In this document: positions 6,752 to 63,273 of the stretch, one piece after another
How the letters are laid out: every line of letters starts with the position of its first letter
How positions within the stretch are numbered: the stretch's first letter is position 1
Virus record (IMG/VR): IMGVR_UViG_3300045391_000045
Span: 1-64,000 of that record
Origin: a virus
Reading direction: 5' to 3' (one strand)
DNA: 64,000 nt
The notes under the pieces: generated by a model
Seen by the model: the letters and a program-made list of their open reading frames with translations, nothing else
What the model was told of the DNA's origin: nothing
Database searches by the model: none
Translations under genes and position numbers: made by a program

Positions 6752-7315
6752 ATGCAAATTGTCGGTTTGAGCGGTTACGCAAGAGTCGGCAAGGATACGG
6801 CAGCCGAGGCTCTTTCGAGCCTCGGCTTTGTCCGTATTTCCTTCGCTGATAAGTTGCGAGACTTCCTGTATGAATTCAATCCAATTATCGATGTTGAATA
6901 CGAAATTGGCGGGGGTGCTGGAGTAAGGCTCCGTAGCATCATTGATTCATATGGATGGGATGGGTATAAGGAAACAATCTATTACAATGAGATTAGAAGG
7001 AATCTTCAGGTTCTTGGAACAGAATGCGGTCGAAAGATTGTTAGCGACAACATTTGGGTAGATGCTTTGCTAGATGGTCTAAGTGATGGCAAGTACGTCA
7101 TTGCAGATGTTAGATTCCCAAATGAGGCTAATGGCATTCGTGACCGTGGTGGTAAGATTTACCGCATTGAACGTGATGGAATTGGCGCATTTAATGACCA
7201 TCCATCAGAGGTGTCACTTGACCATTATGAATTCGACGGGTTTATCCATAACGATGGAACCCCAGCAGAATTTAAGCATAGTGTAAGGAGAAAGATTCTT
7301 GAGGGTAGGATTTGA
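6752..7315 (+). CDS. deoxynucleoside monophosphate kinase
   Basis: GLSGYARVGKDT P-loop typical of phage dNMP kinases. Confidence 0.65.
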   Translation: MQIVGLSGYARVGKDTAAEALSSLGFVRISFADKLRDFLYEFNPIIDVEYEIGGGAGVRLRSIIDSYGWDGYKETIYYNEIRRNLQVLGTECGRKIVSDNIWVDALLDGLSDGKYVIADVRFPNEANGIRDRGGKIYRIERDGIGAFNDHPSEVSLDHYEFDGFIHNDGTPAEFKHSVRRKILEGRI

Positions 7316-7868
7316 TATCGATGGCGTAATGTACGATTTCGCTGAATCGCTTCGCCAATACATGAGGTACTTTGGTTATGACAAGAAGTATAAGATGTGT
7401 GAGGGTGAAGTCAGCGAATGGTACTTTTACCGTCATTGGGGCATGACAGACAGTGAGTTCGTAAACCACTGTCACAAGGGTGTGGACGCAGGGTTCGTCT
7501 TTGCCCACGGAGGCACCCGTGACAATTCTTCTGACGCTGTGAGATTTGTGAAGGACCTAGGTCACTCGGTTCATATCATCACGGACAGAAGTTTTGGTAG
7601 CACCCCTGAACGGTCCCACTTTGCCACTAGGCAGTGGCTCTATCTGAACGACATTCCGTATGATACGATTGACTTCTCTGCTGACAAGACGTGTCGAGAG
7701 ACTGACATGTTCATTGAGGACAAGTTGGAGAACTATGATGCACTTGTAGCGGCGGGTGTAGACTGCTACCTTGTAAACAGGCCATGGAACATGGTTCCTG
7801 GAGATGACAGGAAGCGTATCAAGAGTATCCAAGAGTATGCTACAATTATTGGAAATCTTAGTGTTTGA
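7299..7868 (+). CDS. HAD-family 5'(3')-deoxyribonucleotidase
   Basis: N-terminal GFDIDGV (DxDxV HAD motif I). Confidence 0.6.
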   Translation: MRVGFDIDGVMYDFAESLRQYMRYFGYDKKYKMCEGEVSEWYFYRHWGMTDSEFVNHCHKGVDAGFVFAHGGTRDNSSDAVRFVKDLGHSVHIITDRSFGSTPERSHFATRQWLYLNDIPYDTIDFSADKTCRETDMFIEDKLENYDALVAAGVDCYLVNRPWNMVPGDDRKRIKSIQEYATIIGNLSV

Positions 7869-15114: not shown

Positions 15115-15139
15115 TTCTAAACTTCTAGCCCTAACAATT

Positions 15140-15263
15140 TCGGGTCGGAGTTTCTTGGTTACCTTACTATGCATGAGAAGTTGTCGGTTCGAATCCGGCC
15201 GGGTCCATTCATGGGCCTGTAGTTTAATTGGCAAAACTTACACCGAGGAACGTTTCATATCCG
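15140..15263 (+). ncRNA. Y RNA-like (YrlA-like) unit f with permuted tRNA-like module
   Basis: 15183-15207 GTCGG-TTCGAAT-CCGGC-CGGGTCC-A, loop TTCAT, then 15213 GGGCCTG-TA-GTTT-AATTGGCA-AAAC; acceptor halves pair 7/7 with wobbles; bounded by GGGTCGG and CATATCCG. Confidence 0.5.
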
Positions 15264-15306
15264 TCTTAATTGTTAGGGCTAAGCTTTTGTCTAGAAAAGG
15301 AGAGAC

Positions 15307-15933: not shown

Positions 15934-17550
15934 ATGTCTAATGCACTTGGTAAGTTTGCTGCTTCTCAGAAGCAGGAGCGCGTTGCTACGCCTCAGACAA
16001 AGCGTACCCCTGGTCGTACGGATGAGGTCAAGAACAACGCGGGCGGGTTTGTGTTCAAGGTAGACGACAAGTCTCGTCTTGAGCGCTTCCTGGTGTTGGG
16101 TACTGACAAGGGTACCTATTACGTTGGTGAGCAGAAGTTGACGGCTCAGAACATTTCCTTCCTGAAGGAGATGGTCCGTAAGGATGAGCGTCTGGTCGTG
16201 GACACTGCTGTTGACGTCTCTGTAAACGCTCGTGCGCTTAAGAATTCTCCTGCGCTGTTCGCTATGGCTCTGGTCATGACGGAGGGCAAGGACAAGGCTT
16301 ACGCTCGTGAGGCCGTACAGAAGGTTGCTCGTACGTCTACCCACCTTTTCGAGTACGCACAGTACATCGATGACCTGGGTGGTTGGGGTCGAGCAAAGCG
16401 TCGTTCTGTCGCTGAGTGGTACGAGAACAAGTCTATCGATGCGCTTGCGTATCAGGCTGTGAAGTACCGTCAGAGGAACGGTTGGACGCACCGTGACCTT
16501 TTCCGTCTTGCTCACCCTCAGGGTGTAGACCAGGGTGTTGGTAACTTCATCCTTGGCAAGGACGTTGAGGCTGAGGTGGAAATTCTTAAGGGCTTCGCTG
16601 CAATGCAGTCTGCGACTTCGGTCAAGGATGTTATTCGCACGCTGGAGACTTTCAAGAACCTTCCTTGGGAGACCATCCCTACTCAGTTCCTCAAGGATGT
16701 GAAGGTCTGGAAGACTCTGTTCTACAACGGTCAGCTTCGTGGCCAGGCTCTCATTCGCAACATTACTCGACTCGCTCGAATTGGTGCGTTTGATGACATG
16801 GTTTTCGCAACTGACTACGCGAACGCAATTGCTAACCAGGAAATGATTCAGAAGACTCGTCTTCACCCAATCAACTTCCTGAATGCGGTTGTTGTTCACG
16901 AGAGTGGACAGATTGACCGTAACGGTTACAGCATGTGGAGTGCCGGACGTAAGAAGGATTGGAAGTCTAACGGAAAGATTGTGGATGCTCTCAATGAGGG
17001 ATTCCACATGGCATTCAAGACTGTCGAGCCTTCTGGCAAGAGGACTCTGGTTGCGACTGACGTGTCTGGCTCAATGAGTCAGGCTGCCATCGGACTTGAC
17101 CTCTCTTGTGCTCAGGTTTCTGCGGCTGTTGCTATGACGGTTGCGCGTTCCGAGCCTTACAGTGACATTGTTGGCTTCTCTAGCAGCATTGTTGACTTGG
17201 GCATTACCGCTAAGAGTTCTTTTGCCGACGCAATGCGTAAGGTGAGTAACAGGAACTTTGGTGGTACGGATGCGGCTGCTGCAATTAAGTACGCTAACCA
17301 GAAGGGAATTCAGGTTGACACCTTCGTAGTTATCACTGATAACGAGACGTGGGGCGGAAGCCAGAAGCCTTTCCAGGCACTTAAGCAGTACCGTCAGAAG
17401 ACCGGAATTGATGCGCGTCTTGCGGTTCTCGGTGTGGCGTCTACGGACTTCACCATCGCTGACCCTACGGACCGTGGAATGATGGACTTCGTTGGTTTCG
17501 ATGCAAATGCGCCTAAGGCCCTCGCGGACTTCAGCGCTGGTCGTATCTGA
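15934..17550 (+). CDS. rsr: Ro60-like ribonucleoprotein (TROVE domain + C-terminal vWA/MIDAS)
   Basis: 538 aa; TROVE-like N-terminal region; MIDAS motif VATDVSGSM...TD; RBS AAAGGATTAGAAAAATG. Confidence 0.8.
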   Translation: MSNALGKFAASQKQERVATPQTKRTPGRTDEVKNNAGGFVFKVDDKSRLERFLVLGTDKGTYYVGEQKLTAQNISFLKEMVRKDERLVVDTAVDVSVNARALKNSPALFAMALVMTEGKDKAYAREAVQKVARTSTHLFEYAQYIDDLGGWGRAKRRSVAEWYENKSIDALAYQAVKYRQRNGWTHRDLFRLAHPQGVDQGVGNFILGKDVEAEVEILKGFAAMQSATSVKDVIRTLETFKNLPWETIPTQFLKDVKVWKTLFYNGQLRGQALIRNITRLARIGAFDDMVFATDYANAIANQEMIQKTRLHPINFLNAVVVHESGQIDRNGYSMWSAGRKKDWKSNGKIVDALNEGFHMAFKTVEPSGKRTLVATDVSGSMSQAAIGLDLSCAQVSAAVAMTVARSEPYSDIVGFSSSIVDLGITAKSSFADAMRKVSNRNFGGTDAAAAIKYANQKGIQVDTFVVITDNETWGGSQKPFQALKQYRQKTGIDARLAVLGVASTDFTIADPTDRGMMDFVGFDANAPKALADFSAGRI

Positions 17551-18912: not shown

Positions 18913-18990
18913 GCCCCAGTATCGCCACTGGCTTCTAACCAGTCGTTAACAGCGTAATGGAGTATGCAGGTTCGAATCCTGTCTGGGGTA
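18913..18990 (+). tRNA. atypical tRNA-like gene (anticodon TCT, Arg) with 5-nt D region and 22-nt variable arm
   Basis: acceptor GCCCCAG/CTGGGGT, anticodon arm ACTGG-CTTCTAA-CCAGT, T-arm GCAGG-TTCGAAT-CCTGT; no D-arm can be folded. Confidence 0.4.
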
Positions 18991-19327: not shown

Positions 19328-19370
19328 GAATAATATGGATGGTAGGATACTCCTAAGAAGGTTTAGGAGG

Positions 19371-19937
19371 ATGAAAATGCCTAAGAGAAAGTTTTTCTAT
19401 GATACCGAGTTTCACGAAGATGGTAAAACTATTGATTTGATTTCAATTGCTATGGTTCGTGGAGACGGTAAGGAATATTATGCTGTATCATCTGATGCGG
19501 ATTACAAGCGGGTTTTTGAGAACAGTTGGTTGATGAATCATGTTATGAATACAATCGACCATGTTGTTGTTGAAGACCATCACGGTGGCGGATATACAAT
19601 TATCCCAAAGGGTCCTTTCGTAAGAACCAGAGAACAAATCCGTGATGAAATCCTTGAATTCGTAATGGAAAGTCAGGATGAATTTAACGACCCTCATGGT
19701 GAGGCAAAGGCTGAGTTGTGGGCATGGTATGCTGACTATGACCACGTAGCACTTTGTCAACTGTTTGGTAAGATGATTGACCTTCCAACAGGTTTCCCTA
19801 TGTTTACTAGAGATTTGAGGCAGCATTGGGAGTATAAGGGATATCCTGAGCTTCCAAGACAAGACGATGGTGAACACAACGCACTTGACGATGCACGTCA
19901 CAACCTGGTAATGTATAACTACATGGAAGGTCTGTGA
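19371..19937 (+). CDS. DEDDh 3'-5' exonuclease (RNase T / oligoribonuclease-like)
   Basis: FFYDTEF (Exo I), HNALDDARHN (Exo III with His); RBS AGGAGG. Confidence 0.6.
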   Translation: MKMPKRKFFYDTEFHEDGKTIDLISIAMVRGDGKEYYAVSSDADYKRVFENSWLMNHVMNTIDHVVVEDHHGGGYTIIPKGPFVRTREQIRDEILEFVMESQDEFNDPHGEAKAELWAWYADYDHVALCQLFGKMIDLPTGFPMFTRDLRQHWEYKGYPELPRQDDGEHNALDDARHNLVMYNYMEGL

Positions 19938-20850: not shown

Positions 20851-21654
20851 ATGTTCGGTCGTCGTAAGGCTGCTTTCGTTCCCGATACCACCAAGCGTGT
20901 TCTTAAGACTGTCAAGGTTGTTAAGCGAGACCCTTCTACGGCTGCTGCGCCTGTTGACCTGATTAAGAAGGTTGGTGTTTCTTTCGAAAAGAAGGTTGAG
21001 TCTGCTGTTAATCTGAACAAGAATGTCAGTGGCCCTTCTCGCGGTGTTGTCTGGAATGTTATCGGTCTGCTTGATGAGTCGTACTCTATGGCTCCGTTCT
21101 TCAGTGATGGCACTGTTCAGGAGATTGTTGACCGTGTGCTTGCTTGGTCTGCCTCGGTTGATGCTGATGGCCTGGTGCCTTTCGGCGGATTTGCTGACAG
21201 CCACGTTTGGCACGGTGACGTTGACCTGACTAACGTTAATAACGTCGTTGCTACAAACGGCTGGTCGCCTTGGGGTGGTACCAACCTTGCTGACTCTCTT
21301 CAGGCTATCCTTGACATGGTTCGGGACATGGGAGATGCTTGGCAGGAGAACCCCATCCTTCTGTTCATTGTGACAGACGGTATGCCGTTCAATCGGGACC
21401 TTGTAAAGCAGCTTATTCAGGAACTTTCTCAGTACCCTGTCTTTATCAAGATTCTGCGGGTTGGCAATGACCCTGGTGCTAAGGCTTTCGTTGAGGACCT
21501 TGACAACATGGTTGGTGGTCGTCTGGTGGATAATGTTGAGGCTCCGGATGATGGTCTCCGTAAGGGAATGTCTGACGACAAGTTCAATGCAGCGATGATT
21601 CACGACATGGACAAGTATGTCAACGATGCAACTGCGGTTGGCCTGCTTAGTTGA
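20851..21654 (+). CDS. vWA (von Willebrand factor A) domain protein
   Basis: MIDAS-like DESYSM, TNLADSL and FIVTDG motifs. Confidence 0.6.
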   Translation: MFGRRKAAFVPDTTKRVLKTVKVVKRDPSTAAAPVDLIKKVGVSFEKKVESAVNLNKNVSGPSRGVVWNVIGLLDESYSMAPFFSDGTVQEIVDRVLAWSASVDADGLVPFGGFADSHVWHGDVDLTNVNNVVATNGWSPWGGTNLADSLQAILDMVRDMGDAWQENPILLFIVTDGMPFNRDLVKQLIQELSQYPVFIKILRVGNDPGAKAFVEDLDNMVGGRLVDNVEAPDDGLRKGMSDDKFNAAMIHDMDKYVNDATAVGLLS

Positions 21655-28552: not shown

Positions 28553-28642
28553 GGAAGTGTGGCTGAGTCCGGTTTAAGGCGCTTCACTGCTAATGAAGTG
28601 GTTTCGTAAAGAGGCCCGCAGGTTCGAATCCTGTCACTTCCG
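28553..28642 (+). tRNA. tRNA-Ser (anticodon GCT)
   Basis: acceptor GGAAGTG/CACTTCC perfect, anticodon arm TTCAC-TGCTAAT-GAAGT, long variable arm, T-arm GCAGG-TTCGAAT-CCTGT. Confidence 0.6.
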
Positions 28643-28656
28643 CTGGAGTTGATAAC

Positions 28657-28817: not shown

Positions 28818-29885
28818 ATGGTACACGTTTCGAAGATTTTCTCGCTCGATGCGTTGCAGAAGGATATCGATGCGGGATTGGTACGTTCACAGGTAAATGA
28901 GGATGGGACGCTCCGCATTTACAATTACACCGAAGAGGTTCAGTACAAGCGAATGTGGAATGACGTTACGCTGAATTGTCGTGGCCTTATTCTCGACAAT
29001 TACATGCACGTTGTTGCTCGTCCATGGAAGAAGTTCTTCAATTTCGGTGAGCGTCCTCTTCTATTCAGCACTGACACTCCGGTTGAGGTGACTGACAAGA
29101 AGGATGGTTCATTGGGTATTCTTTATCGTCACCCAATGACCGGGGATTACCGAATTGCAACTCGTGGCTCTTTCTTGTCTGACCAGGCTATTCACGCTAC
29201 AAAGGTCTGGGACAACAAGTACAGCCACATCGCACAGCCTTGGGATGGAGTTACATTCCTGTTTGAGATTGTGTACCCTGACAATCGCATTGTGCTGGAT
29301 TACGGTGAGCTTGATGACCTAATCTTGCTGGGTGCCGTTCACAATCAGTATGGATGGTACTACGGTCCGAACGAGGCTGCTGGGATGCTCAACTGGACTG
29401 GTCCTGTCACTGAGGTCTTTGAGTACCGGACCACGAACGACTGCTTCAAGGTGCACCGTTCAAATGCTGAGGGTCTGGTAATTCGGGCCGGTAGCGAGAT
29501 GGTCAAGTTGAAGCAGGAGGACTACGTGGCTTTGCACAAGCTAGTCACAGGTCTGAACGAGCGTGCTGTATGGGAGCGCTTGAAGGCAGGCGAGACACGT
29601 GATAGTATCTGTGCATCGCTTCCCGATGAGTTCCACGGATTTGTTGACAAGGTTGCGGATGAGCTAGAGACAAAGTTCAACGAGATTTACCACAGTTCCC
29701 ACGTGGATTACTGTAAGGTGTTGAACATAATGCCTGGCAAATCAAGCATGAGTAAGGCAGACTGGCGTAAGATGTTCGCATCGCACGCTGTTAAGATGCC
29801 TAACTACGACTTGATTTTCAACTACCTTGACAACCGTCCGGTACAGGAGTCTATTTGGAAAATGATTCGTCCTAAGGGCGAGTAA
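28818..29885 (+). CDS. ATP-dependent RNA ligase, Rnl1-like
   Basis: nucleotidyltransferase motif I VTDKKDGSLG (KxDG), 355 aa. Confidence 0.65.
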   Translation: MVHVSKIFSLDALQKDIDAGLVRSQVNEDGTLRIYNYTEEVQYKRMWNDVTLNCRGLILDNYMHVVARPWKKFFNFGERPLLFSTDTPVEVTDKKDGSLGILYRHPMTGDYRIATRGSFLSDQAIHATKVWDNKYSHIAQPWDGVTFLFEIVYPDNRIVLDYGELDDLILLGAVHNQYGWYYGPNEAAGMLNWTGPVTEVFEYRTTNDCFKVHRSNAEGLVIRAGSEMVKLKQEDYVALHKLVTGLNERAVWERLKAGETRDSICASLPDEFHGFVDKVADELETKFNEIYHSSHVDYCKVLNIMPGKSSMSKADWRKMFASHAVKMPNYDLIFNYLDNRPVQESIWKMIRPKGE

Positions 29886-29924
29886 TTTTTCGGCGGGGTT
29901 CGCCCCGCCAAGCTTGGAGGAGAA

Positions 29925-30203
29925 ATGAAAAATCTGGATTATGAAAAAGTCATTGATGGATATAACGACCTTCGTGAAACATGCCTTGTAATTGCTAAGC
30001 TTAACGATGAGCTGATGGGTCCTGACAGATGGCTGAAGTTTGCCATCCAAGACTCGGATATCACGTTGATGTTTACAGAGCGAGGCATCGTGTGCTATGG
30101 TAGTGCTTACACGACACAGACGATGGACAACGAACACTTCAGTTTCATGATTCCGTTTGAATATCTAGAGGAGTTTGAGGCAAATGCTAGAACTGGTGAT
30201 TAA
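29925..30203 (+). CDS. hypothetical protein
   Basis: hairpin-CAAGCTT-GGAGGAGAAATG upstream. Confidence 0.5.
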   Translation: MKNLDYEKVIDGYNDLRETCLVIAKLNDELMGPDRWLKFAIQDSDITLMFTERGIVCYGSAYTTQTMDNEHFSFMIPFEYLEEFEANARTGD

Positions 30204-30603
30204 CCGGGGGATTCCTGGTAGTGGAAAGTCAACATATGCTCGTGAGTGGGTATTGAAGCCAGGAACCAGACGTGCTAGGGTTAATCGTGATGACATTCGA
30301 ATGCAGCTCTATGGAGTTGAATTCGGTGTCCCGATTGAGGAGACTGTAGTAACGGCGGTTGAAGACCAGATGATTAACACCTTGCTTTCTGAGGGTGTCT
30401 CAGTCATCATTGATGACTGTAACATCAGTCAGCGATACATCAACAGGTTTACAAAGATGGGCGAGAAGCATGGCGCAGAGGTGAGAGTTAATCTCATCAA
30501 CGTTGACCTTGCGACTGCTCTGGACCGGAATAGCAAGCGTGACCGTTTCGTTCCAACCCATGTAATTCAGGATATGTATAAGAGACTTCAGGAGTCGCTG
30601 TAA
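30175..30603 (+). CDS. polynucleotide 5'-kinase (P-loop, T4 Pnk kinase-domain-like)
   Basis: Walker A GIPGSGKST, RxxxR; adjacent to RNA ligase. Confidence 0.6.
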   Translation: MRQMLELVINRGIPGSGKSTYAREWVLKPGTRRARVNRDDIRMQLYGVEFGVPIEETVVTAVEDQMINTLLSEGVSVIIDDCNISQRYINRFTKMGEKHGAEVRVNLINVDLATALDRNSKRDRFVPTHVIQDMYKRLQESL

Positions 30604-31085: not shown

Positions 31086-31170
31086 GCGGGTGTGGCGGAA
31101 CTAGGCAGACGCGATAGGTTTAGGTCCTATTGTCCTTGTGGCGTGCAGGTTCGATTCCTGTCACCCGTAC
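31086..31170 (+). tRNA. tRNA-Leu (anticodon TAG)
   Basis: acceptor GCGGGTG/CACCCGT, anticodon arm ATAGG-TTTAGGT-CCTAT, long variable arm, T-arm GCAGG-TTCGATT-CCTGT. Confidence 0.6.
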
Positions 31171-33367: not shown

Positions 33368-33584
33368 GAAGATGTACTATGTGCTTATCAAGCCTGGTGG
33401 TAAGCCTCTAAGATATGGTAGAAAGGGTGGTGGCTCATACACCCTTGAGAATAACGCTCGTGGTCAGTATGAACACTTGAAGTCTCAGGGTTGCAAGGTT
33501 GAGCTTTACACTACCGAAGTTGAGTGGAACATGCTAGAGTCCAATGTAAACGAACCAATTGAAGGGCAGGAGCCTCTATGGTAA
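33342..33584 (+). CDS. hypothetical protein
   Basis: 80 aa. Confidence 0.4.
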   Translation: MMIMAGLPKKMYYVLIKPGGKPLRYGRKGGGSYTLENNARGQYEHLKSQGCKVELYTTEVEWNMLESNVNEPIEGQEPLW

Positions 33585-34054
33585 CGTATGTCAAGGGTGA
33601 TGCAACTAAGCCTCAGGGTGATGGCAGGAAGATTATCGCCCATGTTTGTAATGACGAAGGTGGTTGGGGCGCGGGATTTGTCCTTGCTGTGGACAAGTTG
33701 TCTTCGCAGCCACGAATCAGTTATCGAATGGCTTATGACCACTGGACTAAGGAAGAGGGGTTGACTTTCATCCCACTTGGATGGACTCAGCTTGATTATG
33801 TTGGCAATAACATTTACGTTGCCAATATGGTTGCTCAGCATCGTACAATCCGTAGTGTTGAGAAGCCAATTTGTTACAAGAGCCTTGAGGTATGCCTGGA
33901 AAAGGTTGCTAAGAGTGCAATTGCTCTTGATGCTACAGTACACATGCCTCGCATCGGATGTGGACTTGCAGGTGGCGACTGGAATGTGGTAGAGTCAATC
34001 ATCAACCGAACCCTAACGCTGAGGGATGTTCATGTCACAGTCTACGACCTTTGA
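33578..34054 (+). CDS. macro domain (ADP-ribose binding/processing) protein
   Basis: IIAHVCNDEGGWGAGFVLAV and GCGLAGGDW resemble macro domain Gly-rich ADP-ribose pocket motifs. Confidence 0.6.
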   Translation: MVTYVKGDATKPQGDGRKIIAHVCNDEGGWGAGFVLAVDKLSSQPRISYRMAYDHWTKEEGLTFIPLGWTQLDYVGNNIYVANMVAQHRTIRSVEKPICYKSLEVCLEKVAKSAIALDATVHMPRIGCGLAGGDWNVVESIINRTLTLRDVHVTVYDL

Positions 34055-34330: not shown

Positions 34331-36256
34331 ATGCGACCTAATGCAAATGTGGCTGAACGCAAGGGTGACCTTGGTGGCCAGAAGATTGCAATGACGTTCG
34401 ACCAGAATAGTCTTGCACATCTTATGTCGGTTATGACTGACCTGTATTCTGACCCTGAGCTTGCGGTAATTCGTGAGTACAGCACAAATGCGTGGGATTC
34501 CCACAAGGCTGCTGGGGTTACTCGTCCTATTGAGGTTACGCTCCCTAATGGTCTTTCTCCTTACTTCAAGGTCAAGGATTACGGCCTTGGTATGGATATT
34601 GACGACATTGAGAATATCTATTCTCAGTATGGTGCGTCAACGAAGCGTGACACTGATGACCAGGTTGGTATGCTTGGTCTTGGTTGTAAGTCTGCGCTGT
34701 CTTATACTTCCCAATTCACGCTTATTGCTGTGAAGGATGGAATGAAGTATAATGTAGCTATTAGCCGTACAGAGAATGGCTCCGGAGTCATGGAGGTTGT
34801 TCTTGCAACCGAGACTGACGAAGAGAATGGCGTTGAAATTGTCATTCCGGCTAAGCGTGGTAACAACTTTGCACACAAGGCAAATGAATTCTACCAGTTC
34901 TGGGAGAAGGGCAGTGTGCTTATTGATGGTGAAGAGCCTAAGTACATTTCTGGCCGGGAGGTCAAGAATGGAATTATGATGGTCTCTGACCTTTCCAAGG
35001 ATTATCTTATCATGGGTAACGTCGGTTATCCTCTTGATGAGCGTCACCAGATTGGTGAGCGCAATTACTATTCCCGCTATGGCGTAGTGGCGCGGGTTGA
35101 CATTGGAGACGTGAACTTTACGCCTTCTCGTGAATCCCTGCATTACACTAAGCGTACTGAGGACACAATCAATCGAATTCGGACTGAATTCAAGGCGGGT
35201 CTCGATGGTATTGTTGAGCGAGACGTTACGGCATGTGCAACTCAGGAAGAGGCTCTTACGACTTACCTTGAGTGGTACAATCTTCTTGGTGGTGGTTACA
35301 GCCGTTACAAGTTCCCTGAGGTTGAGTACCGGGGTAAGAAGGTTCCGATGAACATTCAGCACCCGTTCCTCTCCTACAAGGTGAACCACACGCGGTATGC
35401 AGTTGATTCACACAACTGGATTGATATTAAGACTGCTCGTGATACCCCCATCATTTATGGGTTCGCTGGTGAAAAGATTAGCGGCCATCAGCGTGAGAAG
35501 ATGCGTACTTGGCGCACGCTCAATGGATTCACTTCTAGCAACATCCTGATTTGTGATGAACTGCCGGATGTTCTTGAAGAGGATTGGATTCCTGAGAGCA
35601 AGGTATATTCTTGGGAGGATGTTAAGACTGCTAAGGTTCCGGGACAGAAGTCTGGTCGTCCTGCTGCTGTTTACGATGTTTACCTTCCTGGTTCTACTCG
35701 TATCAAGCAGGTAAAGGCTGACGAATTCCCTGACGACGTTGAGATTGCCCTTGTGGCTCCGCGAGATGTTCCTAATTTCCGGACCGTTAAGGCTTTCCTT
35801 GAGGAGAAGACGGATGTTATGATTGTTCGACTTCAGCAGTACCGATGGGAAAAGTTCCGCAGGACATATCCTGACGCTAAGGACCTTACGTCATTCTTCA
35901 AGGAGATGTACGAGAGCGCAGTAAAGGGCCTTACCGATGAGGACAAGTTCAACCTTGGCCTTGACTATCGTGTCCGCAATCTGCTACAGTCTCTTAATGA
36001 GACGGAGATTGAAGACCCGGAACTTGTAAAGGCTATCATTGCTGCAAAGCAGGTCAAGCCTAGTGATACTCTCAAGCGATATGAGGAAATGAAGGAAACC
36101 TATGGTACCTTTAACTTCGCTCGATATGGTCAGGCTGAAATTGACCGGGTTAACCCGCTTGAGCAGTACGTTCTTCTGAAGTACCATTACTACGACATGG
36201 ATGTTACGCACGCTACGGTTTATATCAATGCAGCGTACCACGCTTTCGTAAAGTGA
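34331..36256 (+). CDS. GHKL-family ATPase, Hsp90/HtpG-like
   Basis: N-box VIREYSTNAWDS, G1 box VKDYGLGMD, G2 box GMLGLGCKSALSY; 641 aa. Confidence 0.6.
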   Translation: MRPNANVAERKGDLGGQKIAMTFDQNSLAHLMSVMTDLYSDPELAVIREYSTNAWDSHKAAGVTRPIEVTLPNGLSPYFKVKDYGLGMDIDDIENIYSQYGASTKRDTDDQVGMLGLGCKSALSYTSQFTLIAVKDGMKYNVAISRTENGSGVMEVVLATETDEENGVEIVIPAKRGNNFAHKANEFYQFWEKGSVLIDGEEPKYISGREVKNGIMMVSDLSKDYLIMGNVGYPLDERHQIGERNYYSRYGVVARVDIGDVNFTPSRESLHYTKRTEDTINRIRTEFKAGLDGIVERDVTACATQEEALTTYLEWYNLLGGGYSRYKFPEVEYRGKKVPMNIQHPFLSYKVNHTRYAVDSHNWIDIKTARDTPIIYGFAGEKISGHQREKMRTWRTLNGFTSSNILICDELPDVLEEDWIPESKVYSWEDVKTAKVPGQKSGRPAAVYDVYLPGSTRIKQVKADEFPDDVEIALVAPRDVPNFRTVKAFLEEKTDVMIVRLQQYRWEKFRRTYPDAKDLTSFFKEMYESAVKGLTDEDKFNLGLDYRVRNLLQSLNETEIEDPELVKAIIAAKQVKPSDTLKRYEEMKETYGTFNFARYGQAEIDRVNPLEQYVLLKYHYYDMDVTHATVYINAAYHAFVK

Positions 36257-36316
36257 TTGGTCGGCCCCGAAAGGGGCCAAGCTCCGGAAATGTCTAATAT
36301 TAGGAGATAAAACAAA

Positions 36317-37324
36317 ATGAAGTATAATCTCGTTCAGGTTGAAGATGGCGGAGAGGCAAACCTTACCGTTGTCCACGATGGAGAGATGTATGTGGCCACT
36401 GACACTCACCCTAATTTCGAGCGAATTGTCGCGGGTGTTGTCGCCGGAGATGAAAGTGTAGTTGAACTGTTTGATGTTCAGAAGACTGCACAGAAGCGAT
36501 TCGACAGGCTTTCCGAGCGTGTCACTGTTTCAAATGGTAAGGTCTACCTTGATGGTGAAGAGGTTGACAATGCACTTACCCAGCAGGTTATCAACTTTGT
36601 GAATAACGGAGTTGAGGACTTTAAGCCTCTCGTTGCTTTCTTCGAGAAGGTTGAGACTAACCCGAATTCTCACAGCCGAGTTCAGCTTTACGCTTGGCTT
36701 CGTGACCGTAACATTACCCTTACTGAGGATGGAAACTTCATCGCTTACAAGGGTGTGAAGGTCGAGAATGGCGAGTATTTCAGCATTTCCACTGGAAAGG
36801 CAATTTCCAATGGTGTTGAGTACAATGGTGCAATTCCTAACCCGCTCGGTGCGATTGTTGAGATGCCTCGCTCTGAGGTTCAGCACGACCCTAGCGTTGG
36901 GTGCCACACCGGTCTCCATGCTGGTACGTGGAATTACGCCAGTGGTTTTGCGCGGGGTGCGGTTCTGACCGTAGAGATTAATCCGCGTGACGTTGTTTCC
37001 GTTCCTACGGACTGTGATGCGCAGAAGTTGCGTGTCTGTCGCTACGTGGTTAAGGACGTGACTGAGACTGAGCTTGACACTCCGGTCTACAGCACTTACC
37101 CTGACCTTGATGGTTACGAGGATGAGGAGTACGACGACTACGGCTACGATTATGACGAGCCGGATGTTGACACAGACGAGCCTGTTGAGGTAGAGTCTGA
37201 GGACAAGGAAGGAACCGAGTCCACCGGTGTTGTAACTGCGGATGTTTCTAGCGCAATTACGTGGCGTCCTGTGGAGTCCACTTGGGCTCCGGAAGACCCC
37301 GATGCACCTTGGAACCGAGTCTAA
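36317..37324 (+). CDS. hypothetical protein with acidic Tyr/Asp/Glu-rich tail
   Basis: 335 aa. Confidence 0.55.
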   Translation: MKYNLVQVEDGGEANLTVVHDGEMYVATDTHPNFERIVAGVVAGDESVVELFDVQKTAQKRFDRLSERVTVSNGKVYLDGEEVDNALTQQVINFVNNGVEDFKPLVAFFEKVETNPNSHSRVQLYAWLRDRNITLTEDGNFIAYKGVKVENGEYFSISTGKAISNGVEYNGAIPNPLGAIVEMPRSEVQHDPSVGCHTGLHAGTWNYASGFARGAVLTVEINPRDVVSVPTDCDAQKLRVCRYVVKDVTETELDTPVYSTYPDLDGYEDEEYDDYGYDYDEPDVDTDEPVEVESEDKEGTESTGVVTADVSSAITWRPVESTWAPEDPDAPWNRV

Positions 37325-37331
37325 TCGGTTC

Positions 37332-37352
37332 GCCCCTTCGGGGGCAAGCTTA
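37332..37352 (+). promoter_or_regulatory. conserved intergenic element: GC hairpin + CAAGCTT (representative copy)
   Basis: GCCCCTTCGGGGGC then AAGCTT, 13 nt before AAGGAGG RBS. Confidence 0.5.
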
Positions 37353-37365
37353 CTAAGGAGGAACA

Positions 37366-37524
37366 ATGACGGTAGCGGAATTGATTGCGAAGTTGCAGAC
37401 GTATCAGAACCAGGATGCTATGGTTAAGGTCTTGGTTGACGACGGATGTGGTTGTTGTTCGAGTGGGGGAACTTACGAGGACATTGATGTTGATGTAGTT
37501 GATGGAGAAATCCGAATCTCGTGA
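37366..37524 (+). CDS. hypothetical small protein
   Basis: 52 aa, strong RBS TAAGGAGGAACAATG. Confidence 0.45.
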   Translation: MTVAELIAKLQTYQNQDAMVKVLVDDGCGCCSSGGTYEDIDVDVVDGEIRIS

Positions 37525-37571
37525 TACACTAGCCTCTCCGGAGGCAAGCTTCCTAACGAAAGGAGATATTA

Positions 37572-38348
37572 ATGTCCAAGATTATGATTCTGGGCGACGT
37601 TCACGGTGAGACAAAGTGGCTGGTGAACATGATTAACAAGGCCAGTCGAATGGGCGTCAAGAAGATTCTCCAGGTTGGAGATTTCGGAATCTGGACTCAT
37701 GAGGCTGAGGGACACCGGTTCCTTGACCGCGCAAATGAGGAGCTTCGTAAGCATGGCATTAAGCTCTATTTCGTTGGCGGCAATCATGAGAACTGGGACC
37801 ACCTGAATTGGCACGAGAAGAATGGTGCTAAGGACTGGAATGGTCACACATTTATTCGGTCTCACATTCTTTACACTGGTCGGGTGAATCGCTGGACCTG
37901 GGGTGAGAAGGGTGAGGAGAAGGTCTTTCAGGCTGTTGGTGGTGCCTTTTCAATTGACCGGCGTCGGCGGGTTGTTGGAAAGACTCTCTGGCTTGATGAG
38001 GAGATTCCTGACCGGGTTGTTTATGGTCTGGAGAAGGCTGGTCGGAAGTGTGATTACCTTTTCACGCATGATGGTCCTAGCTGTCTTCCATTCGCAAATC
38101 TGAAGCCTGATATCGACTCTGATATGCACCGGCAGAAGATGGACCGAATTGGGCGGGCTACTCGGCCTAATCTTTGGTTCCACGGTCACTATCACAAGTG
38201 GATGGAGTACAGCTTTATGCACCAGGAGGGTTATTCCTTCGTGTATGGGCTTGACCGGGACTATCAGTTCTACTCTTACGCCATTCTTGATACTGCATCT
38301 GGTGACGTTGAGACTGCAACTGGTAAGATTATCGAGCACGGAAACTGA
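37572..38348 (+). CDS. calcineurin-like metallophosphoesterase (Ser/Thr phosphatase-like or 2',3'-phosphoesterase)
   Basis: GDVHG, GDFG, GNHE motifs. Confidence 0.65.
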   Translation: MSKIMILGDVHGETKWLVNMINKASRMGVKKILQVGDFGIWTHEAEGHRFLDRANEELRKHGIKLYFVGGNHENWDHLNWHEKNGAKDWNGHTFIRSHILYTGRVNRWTWGEKGEEKVFQAVGGAFSIDRRRRVVGKTLWLDEEIPDRVVYGLEKAGRKCDYLFTHDGPSCLPFANLKPDIDSDMHRQKMDRIGRATRPNLWFHGHYHKWMEYSFMHQEGYSFVYGLDRDYQFYSYAILDTASGDVETATGKIIEHGN

Positions 38349-46290: not shown

Positions 46291-46560
46291 ATGGATGAAA
46301 TTTGTGAGGAACTAGCGCACTGGTTTCTAGTGCATGATTACAAGTGGAAGTTTGATTACGGCCATGGCAATCCCGATGAAAAGGATATTGCAGCAGTAAT
46401 CAAAAAGGCAATGCAACTGCTTAGTGTTGAAGAAACAGATACCAGACTTGAGGTTGGTAGGCTAATCTTCATGAAGAATGCTGAGCTTGGTCTAGTAGAC
46501 ATTTATGTTCACGCTGGGACTATTGAGGAGAATTCACTAAATGAGGACAGCAACGTTTGA
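46291..46560 (+). CDS. hypothetical protein
   Basis: 89 aa. Confidence 0.45.
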   Translation: MDEICEELAHWFLVHDYKWKFDYGHGNPDEKDIAAVIKKAMQLLSVEETDTRLEVGRLIFMKNAELGLVDIYVHAGTIEENSLNEDSNV

Positions 46561-46963
46561 CTACACTGAGATGGCCGTAGTTGACAGCAGCTTTATCGAC
46601 GCTGTTTACTACAACGACAAGAGCAGTGAGCTTGCCGTTTCAATGCTGAATGGCGACACGCATTTCTATGCGGATGTGCCTGCACGCGTTTTCTACAGCA
46701 TGGTTGACGGTTCTTCCGCTGGTGCTGCCTATAACCGAGAGGTTAAGGACCAGTACACAAACATTGCGGGCGGACCTGTTCATGAGGTACAGTTTGTTGA
46801 GCACGAGGTTGGTGTAACCAAGCGCTTCAACGTAAAGGCTGTGGTAGTATTTCAGCAGTGGTTTGACGCTGAATCTGCTGCGGACGCTGCCAAGCAGATG
46901 GAGAAGTACATGGCTCCGAACTATGGCAACGTATCAATCACGGAGGTTAAGGAAGTTGGGTGA
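46541..46963 (+). CDS. hypothetical protein
   Basis: 140 aa. Confidence 0.45.
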   Translation: MRTATFDYTEMAVVDSSFIDAVYYNDKSSELAVSMLNGDTHFYADVPARVFYSMVDGSSAGAAYNREVKDQYTNIAGGPVHEVQFVEHEVGVTKRFNVKAVVVFQQWFDAESAADAAKQMEKYMAPNYGNVSITEVKEVG

Positions 46964-49962: not shown

Positions 49963-50613
49963 ATGAGAGAGTATTCAAAGACCGATAACCTTTACAAGCG
50001 TAACCCTAAGAAGAAGTCTGAGCTTATCGTCGGAGATTACACCCGGCCGGAATTCGCTCATATCGTTTCTTGGTGGGTTACCGAGAAGGTTGATGGTACT
50101 AACGTTCGTCTTTGGTTCGACAAGGACGAGAACAGTGAATATCGTGGGCGTACAGACAATGCACATTTCAGCCCGGTGCAGCATGAATTCATGAACAACC
50201 TTCGTGATTCAATTAAGGAAGATGCAGTAAGCCTTATCCATCGTTTTGGGCTTGATGAGCTGCTTATCTTTGGTGAGCTTTATGGACCGAAGATTCTTTC
50301 TGGTGGCAACTACTCTGACAGTCTGGAGTTCCGAGCGTTTGACATGATGGTTAACGATAAGGTATGGTTGCGACCTGACGCAGTTGAGGAGAACGCAGCA
50401 GACCTTGGGCTGACCATGGTTCCGAACCTTGGCATGATGACTACGGCTCAAATCTTTTTCATGGTAGCTGGCGGATTCAAGTCCACCTTTGCCAAGAACA
50501 AGGATTTCGATGCTGAGGGTGTTATTGCACAGCCTGCGGTAAACCTGTATGACCAGCGTGGAGAGCGTGTTAAGTTCAAGTTGAAGCACAACGATTTGAA
50601 GCATGTAAGTTGA
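49963..50613 (+). CDS. Rnl2-family RNA ligase (minimal adenylyltransferase domain)
   Basis: motif I TEKVDGTN (KxDG), LIFGELYG, KFKLK; 216 aa. Confidence 0.6.
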   Translation: MREYSKTDNLYKRNPKKKSELIVGDYTRPEFAHIVSWWVTEKVDGTNVRLWFDKDENSEYRGRTDNAHFSPVQHEFMNNLRDSIKEDAVSLIHRFGLDELLIFGELYGPKILSGGNYSDSLEFRAFDMMVNDKVWLRPDAVEENAADLGLTMVPNLGMMTTAQIFFMVAGGFKSTFAKNKDFDAEGVIAQPAVNLYDQRGERVKFKLKHNDLKHVS

Positions 50614-50644: not shown

Positions 50645-51121
50645 ATGATTACATTCACAGATAAGCACTGGAATAAAATTGCGATTACCGGTCCAAATGA
50701 TTGCTGGATTTGGACCGGTTCTTGCGATTCTAGAGGATATGGACAAATTAGAGTATCTAAAAATTACGCACCAAGGGTTACAAGAGTAATGTTGGCATGG
50801 GTTGATGGAATTGAAATTCCAGACAAAAATACGTTCGTTTTGCATTCATGTGATACACCCTCATGCGTCAATCCAATGCATCTGAGATGGGGTTCTCACA
50901 AAGAGAATGTTAAGGATGCAGTAGGAAGAAAAAGATACAAGAATAATTTCAATATGCAGGGCGAGACGCATTGGCGTGCTAAGCTGGCAGAAAATGACGT
51001 TATTGAAATTCGTAATCGTCATGACAATGGAGAAAAGAAGCGGGCTCTGTCTACTGAGTATGGAGTCAGTTTTCAAACAATTAGTCATATTGTAAATAGG
51101 GTCACATGGACCCATATCTAA
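50645..51121 (+). CDS. HNH endonuclease (HNH_3/AP2-like)
   Basis: CWIWTGSCDSRGYGQI...VLHSCDTPSCVNPMHL. Confidence 0.6.
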   Translation: MITFTDKHWNKIAITGPNDCWIWTGSCDSRGYGQIRVSKNYAPRVTRVMLAWVDGIEIPDKNTFVLHSCDTPSCVNPMHLRWGSHKENVKDAVGRKRYKNNFNMQGETHWRAKLAENDVIEIRNRHDNGEKKRALSTEYGVSFQTISHIVNRVTWTHI

Positions 51122-51968: not shown

Positions 51969-52349
51969 ATGATTGAGTATAACACCACCTGTATTGTCGG
52001 TGGAAGTGAGATGCTTTGTGACCTTAAGTATGATGTTGATAGTCCTGCTGAGGTCAGCTTTACATTCCATACCCCCGACAAGTCTCCTGAGTGGGTTTTC
52101 TCAAGGGAGCTTCTTAAGGAAGCAATGTCTGACCGTGGAATGTCTGGAGAAGGTGACGTTCTTTTCTATGACCATGGTGATGCAGTCAGTATGCTTCTAA
52201 AGTCTCCGGAGGGAACTGGACTCGCCATTTTCCAGCGGGGTGTTATCAAGGAATTCGTTGAAGAAATCTACCATGAGGTAGAAGAGGACGACGACAAGTA
52301 TTTCCTTCCAGACCAGGAACTTAAGGAATGGCTGGAAGGTTTGGTTTAA
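51969..52349 (+). CDS. SsgA-like protein (SsgB-like)
   Basis: FHTPDKSPEWVFSRELLKEA...GEGDV matches conserved FHT/WVFxRxLL/GDV pattern of SsgA-like proteins. Confidence 0.5.
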   Translation: MIEYNTTCIVGGSEMLCDLKYDVDSPAEVSFTFHTPDKSPEWVFSRELLKEAMSDRGMSGEGDVLFYDHGDAVSMLLKSPEGTGLAIFQRGVIKEFVEEIYHEVEEDDDKYFLPDQELKEWLEGLV

Positions 52350-61408: not shown

Positions 61409-61978
61409 ATGGCAACGTTTTTCACGAGTGACACGCATTTCGGTCATCAGCGAATTATCGAGCTGTGCGAGCGGCCTTTCGATTCTGTTGATGAAATGAA
61501 TGAGGCAATGATTGAGCGCTGGAATGAGACTGTAAAGCCTGAGGACATTGTTTTTCACCTTGGTGATGTGGCACTCGGTAAGATTGCTGAGTCCCTTCCA
61601 CTTATTGGTCGTCTGAATGGCAGCATTTTCCTTGTTCCTGGTAATCACGACCGCATTTTCTCTGGTGAAAAGGAGAAGCAGCGCGTTCGATTCCTGCCTG
61701 AGTACAAGAAGGTCTTTACTGGCATCATGGCTGAGAGCCTGCGTATGGTCCTAGGAGGCTCTGAGGTTATGGTGAGCCACTTCCCCTACGTTGGGGACTC
61801 CCATGGGGCAGACAGGCACGCTGACAAGCGTCCTAAGGATGAGGGTCTGCCTATCATTCACGGCCACGTGCATGATGAGTGGGCAGAAAACGGCCGGATG
61901 TTCAATGCAGGCGTGGACGTTCGAGACTTTCGGCCCGTTCATGAGGACGTGGTAGTTGACTGGCTCAAGAGCCTGTAG
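61409..61978 (+). CDS. metallophosphoesterase (YfcE/MJ0936-like)
   Basis: SDTHFGH, GDV, GNHD, GH motifs. Confidence 0.6.
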   Translation: MATFFTSDTHFGHQRIIELCERPFDSVDEMNEAMIERWNETVKPEDIVFHLGDVALGKIAESLPLIGRLNGSIFLVPGNHDRIFSGEKEKQRVRFLPEYKKVFTGIMAESLRMVLGGSEVMVSHFPYVGDSHGADRHADKRPKDEGLPIIHGHVHDEWAENGRMFNAGVDVRDFRPVHEDVVVDWLKSL

Positions 61979-62807: not shown

Positions 62808-62984
62808 ATGAAGGACACAGTTCCATTCAATATATACAAGGAACATGTCAAGATGGGTCACGAATGGAATGACCACACTGATGATTTGGAGAGATTCAAT
62901 ATCGATACGGTAAGTAAGAGAATCTATCGCTGTTCATGTGGCTGGATGGGATGGTTCAGAAGTGAAGATTTGGCTGGACGATGA
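62808..62984 (+). CDS. hypothetical small protein
   Basis: RBS TTTTAGGAGGTTACATG. Confidence 0.35.
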   Translation: MKDTVPFNIYKEHVKMGHEWNDHTDDLERFNIDTVSKRIYRCSCGWMGWFRSEDLAGR

Positions 62985-63273
62985 GCGTAATCCAAATGAT
63001 TGGGTAGAAAACCCAAAGTCTTGGTTTTGGGTTAAGAATAGCTATGATGCTATTGAATTGCTCGATGACATTCGTCGTAAGGGTAACACAGTTGACGTCA
63101 TGTCGTTTGACCATGACCTAGGGGGTAGCGATACCTCACGTCGTGTGGTACTGTGGTGCTGTGAGCAAGAGTGGTGGCCCAATGAGTGTCGAGTCCACTC
63201 TGCGAACCCTGTAGGATATGAGTGGTTGTCTGGTATGATTAACCGATACGCACCCGAAGGGACGTTGAAGTGA
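62938..63273 (+). CDS. hypothetical protein
   Basis: 111 aa. Confidence 0.4.
   Translation: MAGWDGSEVKIWLDDERNPNDWVENPKSWFWVKNSYDAIELLDDIRRKGNTVDVMSFDHDLGGSDTSRRVVLWCCEQEWWPNECRVHSANPVGYEWLSGMINRYAPEGTLK

Follow-up and report, generated by a model that had tools for sequence, protein, structure and literature searches.

A predicted RNA repair module lacking the 3'-phosphatase domain of its polynucleotide kinase in the tRNA island of a Gilsonvirus-like Streptomyces phage

This report concerns a predicted RNA repair module, formed by an RNA ligase gene and a polynucleotide 5'-kinase gene, in a 64,000-nucleotide stretch of viral DNA (IMG/VR record IMGVR_UViG_3300045391_000045, positions 1 to 64,000) that is referred to below as the window. 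Judged by sequence, the window belongs to a Gilsonvirus-like Streptomyces phage. Its nucleotide identity is 81-85% to the Streptomyces phages Francob, Gilson, Emma1919, Belfort and Patelgo, which have genomes of ~128-130 kb and are classified in the Stanwilliamsviridae, Loccivirinae, Gilsonvirus. Every gene in the window is on the + strand. ARAGORN located 31 tRNA genes and one tmRNA gene between ~11.7 and 44 kb, and the ligase-kinase pair lies within this tRNA island, in the tRNA-rich context that an initial annotation, made from the sequence alone, had described. That annotation had proposed that the ligase (Rnl1-like) and the kinase, together with a second, Rnl2-like ligase and two metallophosphoesterases (MPEs), mirror the T4 Pnk/Rnl1 pathway that reverses cleavage of tRNA. 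All five open reading frames (ORFs) were confirmed, on the + strand, at the coordinates listed here and further below. The module and its two flanking tRNA genes are arranged as follows.

28553-28643, + strand: tRNA-Ser(GCU), found by ARAGORN; conserved upstream neighbour of Lig1.
28818-29885, + strand: Lig1, a predicted Rnl1-family ATP-dependent RNA ligase of 355 amino acids (aa), from sequence and fold matches.
29925-30203, + strand: conserved 92-aa ORF between Lig1 and the kinase (phrog_20718, 2.9e-32).
30184-30603, + strand: predicted polynucleotide 5'-kinase of 139 aa, kinase domain only, matching the kinase domain of T4 Pnkp (the ORF as listed begins at TTG 30175).
31086-31170, + strand: tRNA-Leu(UAG), from ARAGORN and synteny; conserved downstream boundary of the module.

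This arrangement is shared with related phages. A tRNA-Ser(GCU) gene also precedes the ligase in Francob, Belfort, Faust, TunaTartare, Annadreamy and BillNye. The order ligase then kinase within a tRNA island is shared by at least eight named phages from three genera, and in the five of these in which both flanks were seen the module is directly bounded by tRNA-Ser(GCU) and tRNA-Leu(UAG). The records of the relatives already name the homologues of the five proteins "RNA ligase", "polynucleotide kinase", a second "RNA ligase", "phosphoesterase" and "metallophosphatase", and for this reason the basic observation is real but not new. A search of the literature for work on the ligase or the kinase of these phages returned no such study; the publications found were genome announcements and a single preprint, in which the tRNAs are discussed. 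A scan of the module for sigma-70 promoters and terminators gave sites that were no more numerous than in shuffled sequence.

Lig1 matches PF09511 (RNA_lig_T4_1) at 1.8e-13, TIGR02308 across residues 31-308 and, over its whole length, phrog_562 at 1e-73. Entries for T4 Rnl1 are its sole significant sequence matches in the PDB (5e-15), and over 4700 sequences of the protein collection belong to its family. The motif VTDKKDGSLG, which the initial annotation had singled out as a nucleotidyltransferase motif I (KxDG) together with TEKVDGTN in the second ligase, is present in the translation and places the motif I lysine at K94. In 42 homologues R55, K72, F74, K94, D96, G97, E150, E218, G219, K230 and K232 are invariant, and R55, K72 and F74 match the Rnl1-specific upstream residues R54, K75 and F77 of T4. 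The position of T4 K119 is occupied by an arginine, R116, which is invariant across the clade. An AlphaFold (AF2) model with a predicted local distance difference test score (pLDDT) of 92 shows a nucleotidyltransferase domain followed by an all-helical C-terminal domain (residues 234-349 helical). In T4 Rnl1 it is the all-helical C-terminal domain that gives the enzyme its tRNA specificity. The top Foldseek matches of the model are structures of T4 Rnl1 (2c5u, 5tt6 and 9do4; 2e-17, ~385 aligned columns), followed by fungal Trl1 ligase domains and by Rnl3 and Rnl5, with DNA ligases far behind. The template modelling (TM) score against T4 Rnl1 is only 0.56, probably reflecting a difference in domain orientation. 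Sequence and model thus agree in assigning Lig1, over its whole length, to the Rnl1 family, as originally annotated, and neither to the DNA ligases nor to the capping enzymes.

The kinase most probably starts at ATG 30184 (MLELVINRG, with GAGGAG upstream), as annotated in relatives, and not at TTG 30175. Its translation contains the P-loop GIPGSGKST that had been noted earlier; the adjacency to the ligase that was noted with it is not immediate, for the conserved ORF at 29925-30203 stands between the two genes. The protein matches AAA_33 at 1.3e-19. Its best PDB matches are to the T4 Pnkp kinase domain (1ly1/1ltq, 136 residues aligned, 4.5e-12), and Capnocytophaga Pnkp1 is the third-best (2.5e-10). 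Mutagenesis in the Shuman laboratory has established that K15, S16, D35, R38 and R126 are essential in T4 Pnkp. These align with K15, S16, D36, R39 and R119 of the window kinase (numbered from the ATG), all of which are present, so that the P-loop lysine and serine, the aspartate and arginine of RDDxR and the lid arginine are conserved. The protein is accordingly classified by homology as a T4-Pnkp-type polynucleotide 5'-kinase, in keeping with the initial annotation, and these comparisons gave no sign that it lacks polynucleotide specificity. They also indicate that it consists of the kinase half only.

The missing half is apparent from several comparisons. The window kinase matches phrog_505 only at positions 1-143 of 295. 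Among the best 150 representatives of the kinase family at 50% identity, 75 are 261-330 aa long and 54 are 130-185 aa long. The closest long relatives bear a T4-like HAD domain, which is encoded in 121 Streptomyces phage records, and are up to 55% identical to the window kinase within the kinase part. At the same genomic position, TunaTartare, Annadreamy and BillNye (all Loccivirinae) and LilMartin (Boydwoodruffvirinae) encode a kinase-phosphatase of 290-301 aa, whereas the window, Francob, Gilson, Belfort, Patelgo and Faust have kinases of 139-147 aa that stop precisely at the domain boundary. The short alleles group in a single clade, with 71-90% identity among themselves versus 48-69% to the long alleles, and Faust has the short allele though its genus-mate TunaTartare has the long one. 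A tblastn search with four HAD_PNKP domains revealed no trace of a remnant in the window or in Francob 10100-128799; the best match in the window had an E-value of only 0.002 and fell at an NT5C-type gene at 7299. This HAD-type gene (7299-7868) was considered as a split-off Pnkp phosphatase and rejected. It matches NT5C 5'-nucleotidase at 8.8e-7 and not HAD_PNKP, has no PDB link to T4 Pnkp and adjoins a dNMP kinase gene, and its similarity to the Pnkp phosphatase is at the level of the HAD superfamily only (E = 0.002; phrog_415, 5e-6). Since syntenic sister phages have a full kinase and HAD-phosphatase protein and no trace of the phosphatase is left here, the HAD 3'-phosphatase domain was deleted from the window kinase. 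In this respect the proposed likeness to T4 Pnk/Rnl1 fails, as the 3'-phosphatase half is missing and has been lost relative to sister phages.

After the loss of this domain, selection on the rest of the module has continued. Among the six short-allele phages, at a saturating synonymous divergence (dS ~1), the mean pairwise ratio of nonsynonymous to synonymous substitution (dN/dS) equals 0.13 in both the ligase and the kinase gene and 0.08 in the 92-aa ORF. All three genes are under purifying selection and the short form of the kinase has been kept since the loss; decay of the module is excluded by this analysis.

The 92-aa ORF is conserved in Gilsonvirus, Faustvirus and Annadreamyvirus. Because it overlaps the start of the kinase, the two are probably translationally coupled. 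It gave no significant match in Pfam, in the PDB profile search or in PADLOC; its sole Pfam match, to Acb2/Tad1 hairpin, was non-significant (E = 0.028). The ORF could be a further component of the repair system. Between the Lig1 stop codon and the ribosome-binding site of this ORF is a perfect GC-rich hairpin (29893-29910, + strand; GGCGGGG TTC GCCCCGCC) that is not followed by a T-tract and could be an RNA-stabilising or attenuating element.

With the dedicated HAD domain gone while selection on the rest continues, a 3'-healing step must come from elsewhere. Four further genes in the window bear on the question of how the repair system is completed.

37572-38348, + strand: MPE1, a Dbr1-like metallophosphoesterase (PF00149, 6.5e-11); its membership in the repair module is doubtful.
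49963-50613, + strand: Lig2, a predicted minimal Rnl2-type RNA ligase of 216 aa, nucleotidyltransferase domain only (PF09414, 2.3e-17).
61409-61978, + strand: MPE2, an aq_1665-type metallophosphoesterase and candidate 3'-phosphatase (PF12850, 8.8e-9).
62938-63273, + strand: a cREC (cyclic-phosphate processing receiver) domain protein (PF20274), candidate 2',3'-cyclic phosphodiesterase by published prediction.

MPE2, whose likely start is the ATG at 61409, in agreement with relatives of 189 aa, possesses all the metal-ligand motifs of the MPEs and matches Aquifex aq_1665 (1xm7) in the PDB at 5.6e-8. Its possible connection with the kinase was assessed from gene neighbourhoods in 80 diverse viral contigs that contain relatives of the Pnk kinase, whose ORFs were scanned with purpose-built profiles. 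The kinase is HAD-fused at 50 of these loci, HD-fused at 8 and ligase-fused at 1; the other 21 are kinase-only. An MPE2-type gene is found within 8 kb at 8 of the 21 kinase-only loci and at 1 of the 59 fused loci (Fisher P = 5e-5). At 5/21 kinase-only loci, compared with 0/59 fused loci, the MPE2-type gene overlaps the stop codon of the kinase (P = 8e-4), and these five loci are mutually divergent, with kinases that are 18-44% identical and MPE2-type proteins that are 27-54% identical. These data point to a recurrent partnership between stand-alone Pnk kinases and an aq_1665-type metallophosphoesterase. They provide indirect support for the suggestion in the initial annotation that phosphoesterases supply the 3' step, and they make MPE2 the best-supported candidate for the 3'-phosphatase.

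Other arrangements of the kinase were observed among these contigs. In L033 the kinase and a HAD phosphatase are encoded by separate genes. A kinase fused to an HD-type phosphohydrolase domain is present in L077-L079, L086, L088-L090 and L095, with an HNH-like insertion in L090. L069 encodes a kinase-Rnl1 fusion, and in L058 the matches to Rnl1, kinase and HAD fall in one reading frame.

The cREC gene, which was absent from the gene list of the initial annotation, begins 960 nt past MPE2, with a SprT-like gene between them. It matches PF20274 at 5.2e-22 (78.8 bits against a cut-off of 27), covering positions 2-87 of the 88 in the model. According to a published proposal (PMC7824862), the cREC domain opens 2',3'-cyclic phosphates on behalf of ATP-dependent RNA ligases, to which it was reported to be linked in operons. 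In close relatives the gene is likewise near MPE2 (L096, L097). In L098, a BillNye-like contig, a Lig2 homologue lies 2.3 kb away from it, and in L104, a contig of 482 kb, the distance to an Rnl1-like gene is 750 nt.

MPE1 also contains all the metal-binding motifs, and its family profile, over the full length, best matches the catalytic domain of Dbr1, the lariat debranching enzyme (1.8e-7). It is 258 aa long, does not match PF05011 and reads GDxHG rather than GCxHG. With neither the Dbr1 C-terminal domain nor the cysteine in place of the first aspartate ligand, it is best classed, from its sequence, as a relative of Dbr1 and not a member. Its neighbourhood is distinctive. In the window MPE1 is grouped with genes for an rIIA-like protein of 641 aa and an rIIB-like protein of 335 aa at 34331-38348 (+ strand), and this group is conserved, with changes of order, in L004, L006 and LilMartin. 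MPE1 homologues are found beside rIIA/rIIB-like genes in every close relative as well as in these distant phages, of which L006 and LilMartin also have a full Pnkp. This arrangement suggests a function of MPE1 alongside the rII proteins and not in RNA repair. The idea that MPE1 is a lineage-specific replacement of the lost phosphatase was rejected, because the gene is conserved beside rIIA/rIIB also in phages that keep the full Pnkp. In the neighbourhood survey, MPE1-type genes are somewhat enriched near kinase-only Pnk (5/21, versus 2/59 for the fused forms; P = 0.012), and such a gene abuts Pnk in L073 and a pair of Pnkp and Rnl2-like genes in L047.

Lig2 contains the TEKVDGTN motif and ends 8 residues past motif V. 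Its motifs I, III, IIIa, IV and V are invariant (K42, E105, F126, D127, E185, G186, K206 and K208), and its homologues measure 190-232 aa in all cases but one short fragment (85 among the matches listed). The family profile matches T4 Rnl2 at 3.4e-19 and then the Rnl3 and Rnl5 enzymes. The AF2 model (pLDDT 95.5) has the nucleotidyltransferase domain of T4 Rnl2 as its top Foldseek match (6e-12, TM 0.75), followed by NgrRnl and the trypanosome editing ligase REL1, and DNA ligases score much lower; as for Lig1, this places it apart from DNA ligases and capping enzymes. The earlier description of Lig2 as an Rnl2-like ligase was right as to its closest relative and incomplete as to its architecture. 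The C-terminal domain of Rnl2 (T4 residues ~244-329) is absent, and the DNA downstream encodes an HNH endonuclease and an unrelated small ORF. Sequence and model therefore point to an adenylyltransferase of the Rnl2 type that is devoid of the defining C-terminal domain of Rnl2. In T4 Rnl2 this domain is required for nick recognition and adenylate transfer, and the truncated form Rnl2(1-249) shows that it is needed for complete sealing. For Rnl5, a flanking domain has been described that is needed for complete nick sealing (PMC1807946). By analogy with these enzymes Lig2 alone may be incomplete. Lig2 genes occur in 40 Streptomyces phage records, with distant relatives in crAss-like and Lak phages, and co-occur both with short and with long kinases. 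Lig2 is a separate enzyme, and it probably needs a partner or acts on another substrate, for example a nicked duplex. Directly after it, the HNH endonuclease gene (50645-51121, + strand) has a weak HNH_3 match (4.6e-5, just under the Pfam cut-off) and a DNA-binding tail. At this spot Francob has an unannotated gap of 236 bp after the ligase, with no annotated gene, and the HNH gene is probably a mobile homing endonuclease insertion.

These observations are compatible with a T4-type repair of nuclease-cut tRNA by the kinase and Lig1, with 3' healing in trans. In this scheme a host ribonuclease, for example an anticodon nuclease or a toxin RNase, would cut a tRNA to leave a 5'-OH and a 2',3'-cyclic phosphate. 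The kinase would phosphorylate the 5'-OH. The 3' end would be healed by cREC, which would open the cyclic phosphate, and by MPE2 (perhaps MPE1), which would remove the phosphate, or alternatively by a host enzyme. Lig1 would then reseal the loop in three steps, by way of ligase-AMP on K94, AppRNA and the phosphodiester. The kinase and Lig1 steps draw on strong homology, and we infer the tRNA substrate, the triggering nuclease and the identity of the 3' healer. With moderate confidence we consider this scheme, in which the 3' healer may be either cREC with MPE2 or a host enzyme, to be the probable one.

Several facts weigh against it. A distance of 31 kb separates MPE2 from the kinase, and the MPE2 family is very broad, with 1660 phage records that include ~40-kb Arthrobacter phages where the gene is beside replication genes. 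In the neighbourhood survey cREC was found within 8 kb of Pnk at 0 of the 80 viral loci, and the counts given above for MPE2 are uncorrected for relatedness of the loci. MPE1, MPE2 and cREC are present also in sister phages that keep the full Pnkp, so that none of them is a lineage-specific replacement; a gain of MPE2 or cREC only in the kinase-only lineage was rejected, since both are found in TunaTartare, Annadreamy or BillNye-like genomes. Finally, by analogy with pseT mutants of T4, a kinase without a 3'-phosphatase would be insufficient on its own against cleavage of the PrrC type. Because the three proteins coexist with the full Pnkp in sister phages, the simplest history of the HAD loss is that it was permitted by redundancy.

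A more specific version of trans healing is that cREC and MPE2 together replace the HAD domain of Pnkp, as a previously uncharacterised 3'-healing route in the kinase-only lineage. This is a tentative proposal, which we think doubtful as it stands. If it were true, the pairs of kinase then MPE2 would represent a widespread third type of phage end healing, beside the HAD-fused and HD-fused kinases, and a first function would be provided for two orphan families, cREC and the aq_1665-type MPE.

Two further explanations are unlikely to a similar degree. According to one, the window encodes a complete equivalent of the T4 Pnk/Rnl1 pathway, with MPE1 and MPE2 both acting as 3' healers and Lig2 as a second repair ligase, much as first annotated. 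The intact metal-binding motifs of both MPEs, the enrichment and abutment of MPE1-type genes near Pnk and the fact that Dbr1, the closest solved relative of MPE1, is an RNA phosphodiesterase would fit such a pathway. However, MPE1 is fixed beside the rII genes in relatives, where it coexists with full-length Pnkp, and Lig2 is without the domain that Rnl2-type enzymes need to seal nicks completely. Neither MPE resembles in sequence the known RNA end-healing metallophosphoesterases, and in PDB searches neither matched the phosphatase domain of bacterial Pnkp or lambda phosphatase. According to the other explanation, which we judge to be improbable as well, a phosphatase or cyclic phosphodiesterase of the host heals the 3' end, or the breaks already carry a 3'-OH, and the HAD domain was for this reason dispensable. 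Its clean loss while selection on the kinase and ligase went on, the frequency of kinase-only Pnk (the 54 short forms among the best 150 family representatives) and the 13 of 21 kinase-only loci without a nearby MPE2 gene are consistent with this. On the other hand, the presence of a kinase implies 5'-OH ends, which in established RNase chemistry are normally paired with a 2',3'-cyclic phosphate. That MPE2-type genes are enriched next to kinase-only Pnk also argues that many phages bring an alternative phosphatase.

Less probable still, and in our view quite unlikely, is that the pair no longer repairs tRNA and is either a decaying remnant or has another role, for instance 5'-phosphorylation to direct RNA decay, the processing of tRNA or tmRNA precursors of the phage, or work on DNA ends. 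It is true that the activity lost is essential in the T4 paradigm. Yet the low dN/dS at saturating synonymous divergence and the retention of all catalytic residues exclude decay, Lig1 keeps the Rnl1-specific C-terminal domain and the position in the tRNA island is conserved. That Lig1 is mainly a catalyst of tail-fibre attachment like T4 gp63 is highly improbable, for the name "RNA ligase and tail fiber protein attachment catalyst" in the Gilson and Comrade records and in phrog_562 is inherited from T4, whereas these phages are siphoviruses without annotated long tail fibres of the T4 type and the ligase gene is among tRNA genes, beside the kinase and far from the structural genes.

As a whole, these results confirm what the initial annotation observed and lend partial support to its interpretation: the ligase and kinase steps are supported by homology, and of the two phosphoesterases that it enlisted for the 3' end, MPE1 is tied to rIIA/rIIB and MPE2 is linked to kinase-only Pnk in other, unrelated contigs. 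Repair of nuclease-cut tRNA by phage Rnl1 and Pnk is textbook counter-defence, and the finding itself matters little in that regard. The lineage does constitute a natural experiment in which the phosphatase domain of Pnkp is deleted and the kinase and ligase are still strongly selected, and it may help to explain how tRNA-rich Streptomyces phages withstand defences that target tRNA.

The tRNA island contains other features that concern RNA. A Ro60/TROVE protein is encoded at 15934-17550 (+ strand; vWA_Ro60, 5e-56; TROVE, 3e-37). A stretch ~700 nt upstream of this gene, at 15178-15238 (+ strand), partially matches the tRNA-like portion of the Y RNA YrlA (28.5 bits, below the gathering score), and the same match was obtained in Francob, in a gap between genes that carries no annotation (L001 8286-8346). 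Like Y RNAs, the region 15130-15300 is closed by a long stem when folded (z = -2.3). The gene and the YrlA-like element are likely to be a Ro-Y RNA pair. A tRNA-like element at 18913-18990 (+ strand), 4 nt past tRNA-Arg(GCG), scores 34 bits on the Rfam tRNA model and was missed by ARAGORN. It has almost no D-arm, a variable region of 19 nt and an apparent UCU anticodon, and recurs at equal score in Francob (L001 11997-12074), where it is unannotated. The ORF at 19335-19937 (+ strand) matches the Rv2179c-like 3'-5' exoribonuclease family (3e-11), and its homologues in Francob and LilMartin are annotated "DnaQ-like DNA polymerase III subunit". Because of its place among tRNA genes, a role in RNA processing seems at least as likely as the one that the DnaQ-like label implies. 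A 158-aa ORF at 33578-34054 (+ strand) has a weak Macro-domain match (E = 0.004, under the Pfam threshold); the syntenic ORF of Francob, its position inferred from gene order without alignment, is annotated "ADP-ribosyltransferase". Macro domains process derivatives of ADP-ribose, including by-products of NAD-dependent RNA repair. Three accessory genes of the window are host-like, one for a vWA TerF-like protein within the tRNA island (20851-21654, + strand; 2.4e-24), one for a KTSC-domain protein (46541-46963, + strand; 1.7e-9) and one for a sporulation/cell-division protein of the SsgA family (51969-52349, + strand; 2e-13).

Comparison with known systems places the module among its relatives. 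The T4 pair Pnkp and Rnl1, which counters the anticodon nuclease PrrC, is likewise a phage-encoded accessory module. Lig1 has the same catalytic residues and helical C-terminal domain as T4 Rnl1, and the window kinase is homologous to the N-terminal domain of Pnkp, with its five essential residues. Unlike Pnkp, however, the window kinase has no HAD (DxDxT) 3'-phosphatase domain. A further ORF, of 92 aa, separates the genes in the window, which are embedded in an island of 31 tRNA genes, and R116 replaces T4 K119. Closer are the modules of full-length Pnkp and Rnl1 in the sister Streptomyces phages (TunaTartare, Annadreamy, BillNye and LilMartin) and in mycobacteriophages. These share gene order and flanking tRNA genes with the window, have orthologous ligases and show 53-59% identity in the kinase domain, but they keep the HAD_PNKP domain of 150 aa, whereas the Gilsonvirus and Faust lineage is truncated and forms its own clade.

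The bacterial Pnkp/Hen1 system offers a precedent for a P-loop 5'-kinase whose partner is a binuclear metallophosphoesterase in place of a HAD phosphatase, and the kinase-then-MPE gene pairs in viral contigs recall it. In Clostridium thermocellum Pnkp the kinase, metallophosphoesterase and ligase are combined in one protein, whereas in the window they are separate genes that lie far apart, and the window ligase is of the Rnl1 type and not Rnl4. The bacterial Pnkp model TIGR04075 (bacter_Pnkp) scored 23 bits in the window, against a cut-off of 750, and matched the kinase part only; Hen1 is not annotated in the relative Francob, and no Hen1 profile search was made. Lig2, for its part, shares motifs I, III, IIIa, IV and V with T4 Rnl2 and the Rnl5 enzymes (DraRnl, NgrRnl), and its model superposes on the T4 Rnl2 domain. 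It differs from them in having neither the C-terminal domain of Rnl2 nor the N-terminal module of Rnl5, and its clade is uniformly small (190-232 aa). Since a defining domain is absent in each case, the module is not, by domain composition, a full member of the T4 Pnkp or the Rnl2 family.

The broadest comparison is with the survey of Iyer, Anantharaman, Krishnan, Burroughs and Aravind (2021), which described Rnl1, Rnl2, polynucleotide kinase, HAD, calcineurin-like and HD phosphatases, cREC, Macro and TROVE/Ro proteins together with many tRNAs (PMC7824862). The parts of this toolkit are exactly those found in the window. The survey dealt with jumbo phages, in contrast to the phage of ~129 kb considered here, and the loss of the HAD domain and the link between kinase-only Pnk and MPE2 were computed in the present work. 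The module is thus an ordinary member of the known phage RNA-repair toolkit, to which we add two modest points: the loss of a domain under continued selection on its partners, and a statistical link between kinase-only Pnk and the aq_1665-type phosphoesterase, itself a family without an assigned function.

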